From Escherichia phage vB_Eco_T-01, in sequence record PQ438391.1: DNA of 64,000 nt; one strand, given 5' to 3'. Each line of letters opens with the position of its first letter. Positions within the stretch are counted from its first letter, which is position 1. Both the position numbers and the translations under genes were made by a program. Of the stretch, positions 50,378 to 50,740 are shown one piece after another. The notes beneath the pieces were generated by a model. That model saw nothing but the letters and a program-made list of their open reading frames with translations, was not told the DNA's origin and did not search any database.

Positions 50378-50740
50378 ATGAAAGCATATCAAATTCTTGA
50401 AGGCACACACAAAGGCACTATTTATTTTGAAGATGGTATTCAAGCACGAATTATCGTTTCTAAAACCTTTAAAGAGGACTCTTTTGTAGACCCAGAAATT
50501 TTCTATGGTTTGCATGCCCGTGAAATTGAAATTGAGCCACAGCCTACAGTTAAAATTGAAGGCGGTCAACACCTGAACGTTAACGTTCTGCGTCGCGAAA
50601 CTCTGGAAGATGCAGTTAAGCATCCGGAAAAATATCCGCAGCTGACCATCCGTGTATCCGGTTATGCAGTTCGCTTTAACTCTCTGACTCCGGAACAGCA
50701 GCGCGACGTTATCGCTCGTACCTTCACCGAGAGTTTGTAA
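50378..50740 (+). CDS. autonomous glycyl-radical cofactor (GrcA/YfiD-like; T4 Y06I equivalent)
   Basis: C-terminal '[61 protein letters not shown]' with glycyl-radical motif RVSGYA. Confidence 0.85.

Follow-up and report, generated by a model that had tools for sequence, protein, structure and literature searches.

The vs.6 gene of a T-even coliphage joins a phage-type 5' half to a nucleotide-identical patch of host grcA

We analysed a 64,000-nt stretch of the genome of Escherichia phage vB_Eco_T-01 (record PQ438391.1), referred to here as the window, and focus on vs.6, a gene of 120 codons that encodes a glycyl radical protein of the GrcA (YfiD) type. The coding sequence lies on the plus strand at 50378..50740, from an ATG in the list of open reading frames (ORFs) to a TAA that overlaps the ATG of vs.5 at 50740. 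A Shine-Dalgarno-like GAGG can be read from the sequence 5 nt 5' of the start codon (50369..50372, plus strand), where it overlaps the stop codon of vs.7, and a scan for promoters and terminators around vs.6 returned counts at or under the shuffled expectation. Tequatrovirus genomes such as Sf22 and AR1 match the region with 98% identity. In the annotation of AR1, the same gene is named vs.6 or autonomous glycyl radical cofactor, and it stands in the same conserved gene order, vs.8-vs.7-vs.6-vs.5-vs.4-vs.3-regB-vs.1. The translation matches T4 Vs.6 (Y06I) residue for residue, and its exact-sequence cluster carries the T4 name.

The earlier note on this DNA, made from the letters alone, had read the ORF as a GrcA/YfiD-like autonomous glycyl radical cofactor, and database comparisons bear this out. 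Pfam Gly_radical matches residues 61-101 of the protein (E = 2.8e-18), and residues 22-120 align to residues 28-127 of the YfiD structure (PDB 6OWR, E = 8.6e-42). A BLASTP comparison with E. coli K-12 GrcA gave 73/100 identities overall, and pairwise alignment showed that residues 61-120 are identical to GrcA 68-127 at all 60 positions, so that the likeness the note had pointed out for the C-terminal ~60 residues is in fact complete. The divergence that it had described for the N-terminal half was also found, both as weak similarity in the BLASTP alignment and at the codon level (see below). The glycyl radical motif RVSGYAVRF occupies residues 92-100 (50651..50677, plus strand), and its radical glycine G95, encoded by GGT at 50660-50662, corresponds to G102 of GrcA and G734 of pyruvate formate-lyase (PFL). 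When compared at the sequence level with PFL in the PDB (1H16, residues 697-759), the protein matched with an E-value of 5e-26; alignment with the PflB-type C-terminus, a check that the note had proposed, gave 48/60 identical residues in the radical domain. The best match among NCBIfam models is the GrcA equivalog TIGR04365, which spans residues 20-120 with 153.3 bits. This is under the curated cut-off of 170 bits, and E. coli GrcA scores 234; the shortfall arises because the N-terminal half has diverged. The short-form models NF008341 and NF038360 (GrcA2/GrcA3) match the radical domain (E = 5.6e-31 and 6.8e-27), also with scores beneath their cut-offs. A phage-type N-terminus (13 protein letters not shown) is common to the genes of CC31-like, RB43-like and KP15-like phages and of Jiaodavirus. 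Vs.6 is a GrcA-type cofactor, yet it belongs to a distinct phage-type branch of the family.

The biochemistry of this protein is known from T4. Y06I and E. coli YfiD are the two "spare part" proteins that have been validated experimentally, and the PFL-activating enzyme was found to install a glycyl radical on both and so to restore the activity of PFL cleaved at G734 (Wagner et al. 2001, BBRC 285:456, as described in PMC8683613). The statement in the earlier note that the T4 protein can repair oxygen-damaged PFL therefore agrees with the published work as that source relates it. In YfiD, residues 61-127 duplicate PFL 693-759, and residues 1-60 are disordered and matter both for the binding of cleaved PFL and for the installation of the radical (PMC8683613). 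We assign the PFL-rescue function to the protein encoded in the window because its sequence is identical to that of T4 Y06I, for which the function has been demonstrated in the literature. In the infected cell, the host PFL-activating enzyme (PflA) would put the radical on Vs.6, which would then substitute for the C-terminal domain of PFL that oxygen has cleaved at the radical glycine. As the infected cell can presumably no longer express its own grcA, the phage may supply the replacement, and the production of acetyl-CoA, ATP and formate may in this way be kept up when oxygen fluctuates.

At the DNA level, the gene is a mosaic. Alignment with K-12 grcA and a search for the longest common substring divide it into three zones on the plus strand. 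Codons 1-60 (50378..50557) are an AT-rich, diverged homologue of the region encoding the GrcA N-terminus, with a G+C content of 0.35, dN (nonsynonymous substitutions per site) of 0.68 and dS (synonymous substitutions per site) of 1.7 relative to E. coli grcA. The second zone is an exact match of 161 nt at 50564..50724, equivalent to nt 208-368 of K-12 grcA, which encodes most of the structured glycyl radical domain; here dS is 0 over 40.7 synonymous sites. The last 16 nt (50725..50740) form a phage-type 3' end that marks the end of the putative conversion tract, in the codons TTC ACC GAG AGT TTG TAA, which differ from the E. coli codons TTT ACT GAA AGC CTG at five synonymous positions. The terminal GAG AGT is common to RB16-like and KP15-like phages (RB43 itself has GAA AGC), and the last codons therefore look like ancestral phage sequence, which would make the exact stretch an internal patch. 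The comparison of G+C content at third codon positions (GC3) between the two halves, which had also been suggested in the earlier note, gave values of 0.23 for the 5' half and 0.50 for the 3' half. The neighbouring phage genes range from 0.20 to 0.32, and the 3' half of E. coli grcA has a GC3 of 0.45. The 3' 185 nt of the gene matched all 5,426 complete E. coli genomes, with a best identity of 96.8%. All complete E. coli genomes were also searched by megablast with window positions 1-25000, 25378-50377 and 50741-64000, which gave no further chromosomal match. We also considered pflB as the donor of the patch and rejected it, at ~80% identity; the PflB-type 3' end differs from that of the window gene at 41/183 nt.

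An identity of 161 nt is far beyond chance, and the question is whether it reflects constraint on the protein or recent common ancestry. The RB43-like phage genes help to separate the two. They encode the same 60 residues, but they differ from E. coli grcA at 30/183 nt, all of the changes being synonymous, and their longest exact runs are ~20 nt. The 3' parts of E. coli and Salmonella grcA likewise differ at 30/183 nt. Since the 60 residues were kept in the RB43-like genes through 30 synonymous changes, protein constraint must be strong and synonymous sites free, and exact nucleotide identity therefore points to recent common ancestry, not to protein constraint alone. The patch and the grcA of another Escherichia species are equally close to E. 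coli K-12, the latter with 3 differences; Citrobacter has 14 and Salmonella 30. The two halves of bacterial grcA diverge in parallel (0.020 and 0.016 in the Escherichia species, 0.114 and 0.077 in Citrobacter, 0.154 and 0.164 in Salmonella), and because these halves co-diverge and the patch has the composition of the host, the direction of transfer is from host to phage. By these sequence comparisons, very strong protein constraint and recent conversion both operate, at different levels. The earlier note had offered recent acquisition or strong constraint as alternatives; strong protein constraint is seen in the RB43-like genes and recency in the 3' half only, and a recent capture of the whole gene does not fit.

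Divergence between phage lineages gives a relative date for the patch. Between the window and the Mosigvirus ATK47, dS is 1.04 in vs.7, 0.61 in codons 1-60 of vs.6 and 1.32 in vs.5, and it drops to 0.025 in the core of the patch (codons 63-115), where there is 1 change in 40.7 sites. The corresponding values are 0.16, 0.145, 0.21 and 0.025 relative to T4, and 0.07, 0.115, 0.125 and 0 relative to AR1. In the 11 coliphage genes compared, the pooled proportion of synonymous differences (pS) between Tequatrovirus and Mosigvirus fell from 0.338 in the 5' half to 0.047 in the core, and within Tequatrovirus from 0.116 to 0.042. Each phage core lies 0-3 nt from some E. coli allele, and diversity in the core carries no genus signal. 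The same pattern was found at the scale of the phage database: in the 5' half, the identity of 140 coliphage records to the window is just 80-90%, whereas none of the ~647 records with at least 90% identity over the 3' half falls under 93% there. Based on the low dS and pS of the core relative to its flanks and on the 3' identity across the database, the patch is therefore younger than the split between Tequatrovirus and Mosigvirus. Codons 1-60 show dN of 0.07 and dS of 0.61 relative to Mosigvirus, a dN/dS of ~0.11, and the ratio relative to JD18 is 0.18. Because of this purifying selection, and because this part of the gene is kept across T4-like genera, the N-terminal half of Vs.6 must be functional.

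The patches of different coliphages mirror different E. coli alleles. The window, AR1, ATK47 and the phage sequence L003 carry a K-12-type patch, while T4, mar005p1, L004, L005 and L008 carry a patch with C240T, the allele of E. coli B REL606. A third allele, in which C240T is linked to C303A, is found in E. coli strain 503025 and is mirrored in phage contig L006. The patch of T4 (L163) is identical to REL606 grcA (L248:37560-37943) over an exact run of 176 nt. The 3' junctions are nested, with five phage-type sites kept in the window, four in L004, three in AR1 and two in T4. Compared with T4, the window gene differs only by synonymous changes: its patch is 161 nt long rather than 176 nt, a GGC of phage type remains at the 5' edge, as do three additional phage-type sites at the 3' edge, and the patch has the K-12 allele and not C240T. 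As three alleles are mirrored and the 3' junctions are nested, several conversions within coliphages, with different donors and tract ends, are favoured; on these sequence data they are probable rather than shown. E. coli B is the classical laboratory host of T4, and the agreement between its allele and the T4 patch raises the question of conversion during laboratory propagation. C240T is also common (about half of the E. coli genome matches in a small "spread" sample), and the agreement may be a coincidence.

A parallel case is found in Klebsiella phages of the genus Jiaodavirus, which share the same gene architecture and carry a patch of the K. pneumoniae grcA type. Contig L028 has 1 mismatch in its first 158 nt to a metagenomic grcA, including an exact run of 140 nt, followed by 9 mismatches in the last 25 nt, and the matched grcA encodes exactly GRCA_KLEP7 of K. 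pneumoniae. JD18 has an exact run of 101 nt to a second Klebsiella allele and has three of the variant sites of that allele in common with it. Both Klebsiella donor sequences are metagenome contigs identified through the protein that they encode. In the phage database, 134 records of Klebsiella and Raoultella phages are 90-99% identical to the K. pneumoniae 3' half, and coliphages are 85-88% identical. The 5' junction falls at the same codon in coliphages and Jiaodavirus, at the GAAGG that starts EGGQHLNV, where homology between phage and host begins. Because the Jiaodavirus patch is the Klebsiella version and the coliphage patch is the E. coli version, the sequences point to at least two independent host-to-phage events, one in E. 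coli phages and one in Klebsiella phages.

Our preferred reading, to which we assign a probability of roughly 0.85, is that the window gene is the Tequatrovirus vs.6, encoding a PFL-repair cofactor, and that it is an old phage homologue of grcA in which the 3' half has been overwritten, repeatedly, by grcA of the host. The DNA of the host is degraded during T4 infection. Fragments of it may recombine with the replicating phage genome via the homologous recombination system of the phage, and chromosomal grcA would in this way overwrite the 3' half alone, that is, the structured radical domain, without any recent capture of the whole gene. Tracts would begin at the GAAGG of EGGQHLNV and end within the last ~16-25 nt, stopping where homology stops, and each conversion would raise the homology with the host gene and favour the next.

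Several observations weigh against this reading. Conversion is deduced entirely from the comparison of sequences and not from direct observation of recombination. Just one site separates two of the three donor alleles; this site is G in one phage and may simply be mutable. A single patch that spread among co-infecting phages would account for a large part of the pattern within coliphages. The sample behind the dS contrasts is small, at ~41 synonymous sites and 11 coliphage sequences, and within Mosigvirus there is no contrast at all (pS of 0.067 in the 5' half and 0.057 in the core). A search of the phage collection with the 3' half of Salmonella grcA revealed no Salmonella-type patch, and hence no further enterobacterial case, with nothing above 90% identity over the full length. 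The RB43-, KP15- and CC31-like, Aeromonas-type and T5-like genes have no near-identical donor among ~160 bacterial grcA sequences, the closest being 26-53/183 nt away, and their exact runs of at most 38 nt are within chance (the CC31-, RB43- and KP15-like labels of IMG/VR contigs are inferred assignments). With many T4-like and T5-like lineages lacking a donor and no Salmonella patch, the process is therefore not general. The benefit that the phage may draw from PFL repair during infection is likewise a deduction.

Two alternatives would do without recent transfer from the host. The host domain could have been captured once, long ago, after which strong selection on codon usage or on a function of the RNA froze even the synonymous sites. 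The extreme conservation of the C-terminal 60 residues everywhere, the host-preferred codons of the patch, and the similar diversity of core and 5' half within Mosigvirus would all be compatible with such a history. However, synonymous sites are evidently not frozen, given the 30/183 nt that separate both RB43-like genes and Salmonella from E. coli, and freezing would explain neither the K. pneumoniae nucleotide version in Klebsiella phages nor the mirroring of polymorphic E. coli alleles, including a linked pair of single-nucleotide polymorphisms (SNPs). We regard this alternative as largely refuted already and give it very little weight. The patch could instead have moved from phage to bacteria, or be an artefact of assembly or contamination, a suspicion prompted by the occurrence of whole T4-like contigs encoding Vs.6 inside some bacterial assemblies and by a 410-nt "Enterococcus" contig. 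Against this, both halves of bacterial grcA diverge in step with the bacterial phylogeny, the composition of the patch is host-like and not phage-like, and the mosaic, which preserves the reading frame and has phage sequence on either side, recurs in hundreds of phages that were sequenced independently, T4 among them. For practical purposes, this possibility is refuted.

The alternatives that remain accept a transfer from the host, or leave it aside, and concern its frequency and the target of the protein. One conversion per host genus (Escherichia and Klebsiella) could have been followed by spread from phage to phage through homologous recombination, with no repeated re-templating. Recombination is vigorous among T4-like phages, otherwise diverged genera have the patch in common as a stretch of perfect homology, and core pS, at 0.042-0.057 within and between genera, has no genus structure; partial exchanges between phages could also yield some of the variation in junctions. 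Such spread does not readily account for matches to three distinct E. coli alleles, including one marked by a linked pair of SNPs, or for phage cores that each lie so near an E. coli allele, and a patch passed between phages would need to end at the limits of host homology despite a dS of 0.6-1.3 in the flanks. We consider it unlikely, though the most credible of the alternatives. As for the target, Vs.6 might be a spare part or regulator for the phage NrdD or another glycyl radical enzyme and not for host PFL. A role in nucleotide metabolism was speculated upon in an early genome paper on the basis of the Gly_radical domain (PMC1524935), and a glycyl radical ribonucleotide reductase (RNR) is encoded by T4, going by the reference list of PMC13450708. 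However, the domain is of the PFL/GrcA type, as seen in the 60/60 and 48/60 identities above; no NrdD model appeared among NCBIfam matches with E-values up to 0.01, and no chain of NrdD, the class III RNR, among 33 PDB matches with E-values up to 0.001. The donor of the conversion is also grcA and not pflB, and the biochemistry of Y06I, as far as it is relayed in PMC8683613, is that of PFL rescue. A target other than PFL is accordingly very unlikely, and the suggestion in the earlier note that the protein directly serves the anaerobic RNR of the phage finds no backing in these matches. An indirect link is plausible. Formate is both the product of PFL and the reductant of most class III RNRs studied (PMC4390871), and formate made by repaired PFL could feed the phage anaerobic reductase. 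From the gene order of AR1, a T4-type anaerobic reductase gene is expected beyond the end of the window.

If vs.6 is indeed a phage homologue overwritten repeatedly by the host, it may be evolving in concert with the host chromosome, with fragments of host grcA re-templating the phage copy again and again. We hold the chances of this stronger form to be about even. It is consistent with the data, because Tequatroviruses labelled for other hosts carry the E. coli patch and T4 has the allele of E. coli B. If true, each conversion would restore ~160 nt of perfect homology, a strictly virulent phage, one that degrades the DNA of its host, would keep its copy of a host protein domain continuously up to date, and the sequence of the patch would record a recent host down to its species and even its allele. 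The Tequatroviruses in question were deposited for Pseudomonas (PsgM02F and vB_PSGBLB0006), Proteus (Isf-Pm2), Hafnia, Yersinia, Salmonella and Citrobacter rodentium, and all have an E. coli-type patch, which suggests that they evolved on E. coli or carry, in some cases, doubtful host labels.

Both the gene and its biochemical function are already known, and the comparison with related systems shows what is shared and what differs. T4 Vs.6 has the same 120 residues, the same position between vs.7 and vs.5 and the same mosaic structure. E. coli GrcA shares the C-terminal 60 residues, the 161 nt and the two-part layout of an N-terminal region of ~60 aa followed by a radical domain, and both proteins are substrates of the PFL-activating enzyme and rescue cleaved PFL, according to the literature on T4 Y06I as summarized in PMC8683613. 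The phage protein is 7 aa shorter than GrcA, however, and its N-terminal half has diverged (dN of 0.68) and carries a phage-specific consensus (13 protein letters not shown); its gene sits within a phage early-gene cluster, whereas host grcA lies between ung and eamB with its own promoter. The C-terminal domain of PflB (693-759) has the same fold element and motif, but Vs.6 stands alone and is not part of an 85-kDa enzyme. GrcA2 and GrcA3 (78-80 aa) have the radical domain in common with Vs.6, which does not belong to these short forms, as it keeps a full-length N-terminal region and scores under the cut-offs of their models.

The process itself is of a type already described for psbA and psbD in T4-like cyanophages, where host and phage copies recombine within the gene (Zeidner et al. 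2005; Sullivan et al. 2006, PMC1484495). These two are likewise host-derived metabolic genes with patchy G+C content, segments exchanged with the host and clustering by host. In contrast to psbA and psbD, the patch of vs.6 is still nucleotide-identical to a living host allele, with both junctions readable, and a single domain has been exchanged, the other half having lost homology; the hosts are enterobacteria and the phages classical T-even phages. In a full-text literature search we found no paper on a nucleotide-identical host patch in vs.6 or on its host specificity, though an earlier mention is possible. The locus may matter as clean natural evidence that virulent T-even phages recombine with the chromosomal DNA of their host, with donors that can be identified to the allele. 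It also separates two explanations that are usually confounded, constraint (as in the RB43-like genes) and recency (as in the exact patches), and the patch could be used as a marker of the recent host of a phage. Finally, it draws attention to the part that PFL repair, and the formate that it would supply to the anaerobic reductase, may play when infection takes place in a gut poor in oxygen.

Other phage lineages carry related genes. The RB43-/KP15-like sequences L014-L020 have their closest donors 26-31 nt away, and host-type residues are seen in both groups, LEDAVKH (as in E. coli) in the RB43-like coliphage group and LLDAVEH (as in Klebsiella and Salmonella) in the KP15-like group. These residues could be either eroded old conversions or the result of selection to match the host protein. 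The 91-kb metagenome viral contig L023 has ~73 nt with 1 mismatch to a grcA of the H. parainfluenzae type, where its sibling L021 has ~11, making L023 a possible third case of a host patch. L023 (at 1492-1893) and its siblings L021, L022, L024-L026 and L033 are metagenome viral contigs of 32-154 kb that encode a GrcA-like protein of 130-134 aa, and the N-terminus of this protein in L021-L026 and L033 is intermediate between the phage and bacterial types. Approximately 700 nt upstream of the gene in L023, there is an ORF of 234 aa whose cysteine-rich and GGEP motifs recall those of a radical SAM enzyme.

Some database records need care in this context. The Vs.6 protein occurs in assemblies labelled "E. 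coli" and "Salmonella enterica" on contigs of 165-169 kb, which are whole T4-like genomes, as well as on a 410-nt contig labelled "Enterococcus faecalis". Two further oddities (L105 and L113) are a bacterial grcA on a 275-kb record labelled as a Klebsiella plasmid and an enterobacterial grcA in a "Vagococcus" assembly. Elsewhere in the searched parts of the window, the only other match to E. coli records was the tRNA cluster (Tyr/Thr region, ~41194-41348), which is 83-91% identical to tRNA-Tyr and tRNA-Thr on plasmids of ~95-113 kb in 255 genomes and never matched chromosomes; these plasmids may be phage-plasmids with related tRNA arrays. Upstream of vs.6, the vs.7 frame (49990-50370) is open from an ATG at 49990 for 126 aa and overlaps the end of vs.8 (49457-50044) by 55 nt. 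AR1 annotates this long form of vs.7, and the T4 record uses an internal methionine (MMTDTQ, at ~50041) that gives a protein of 109 aa.

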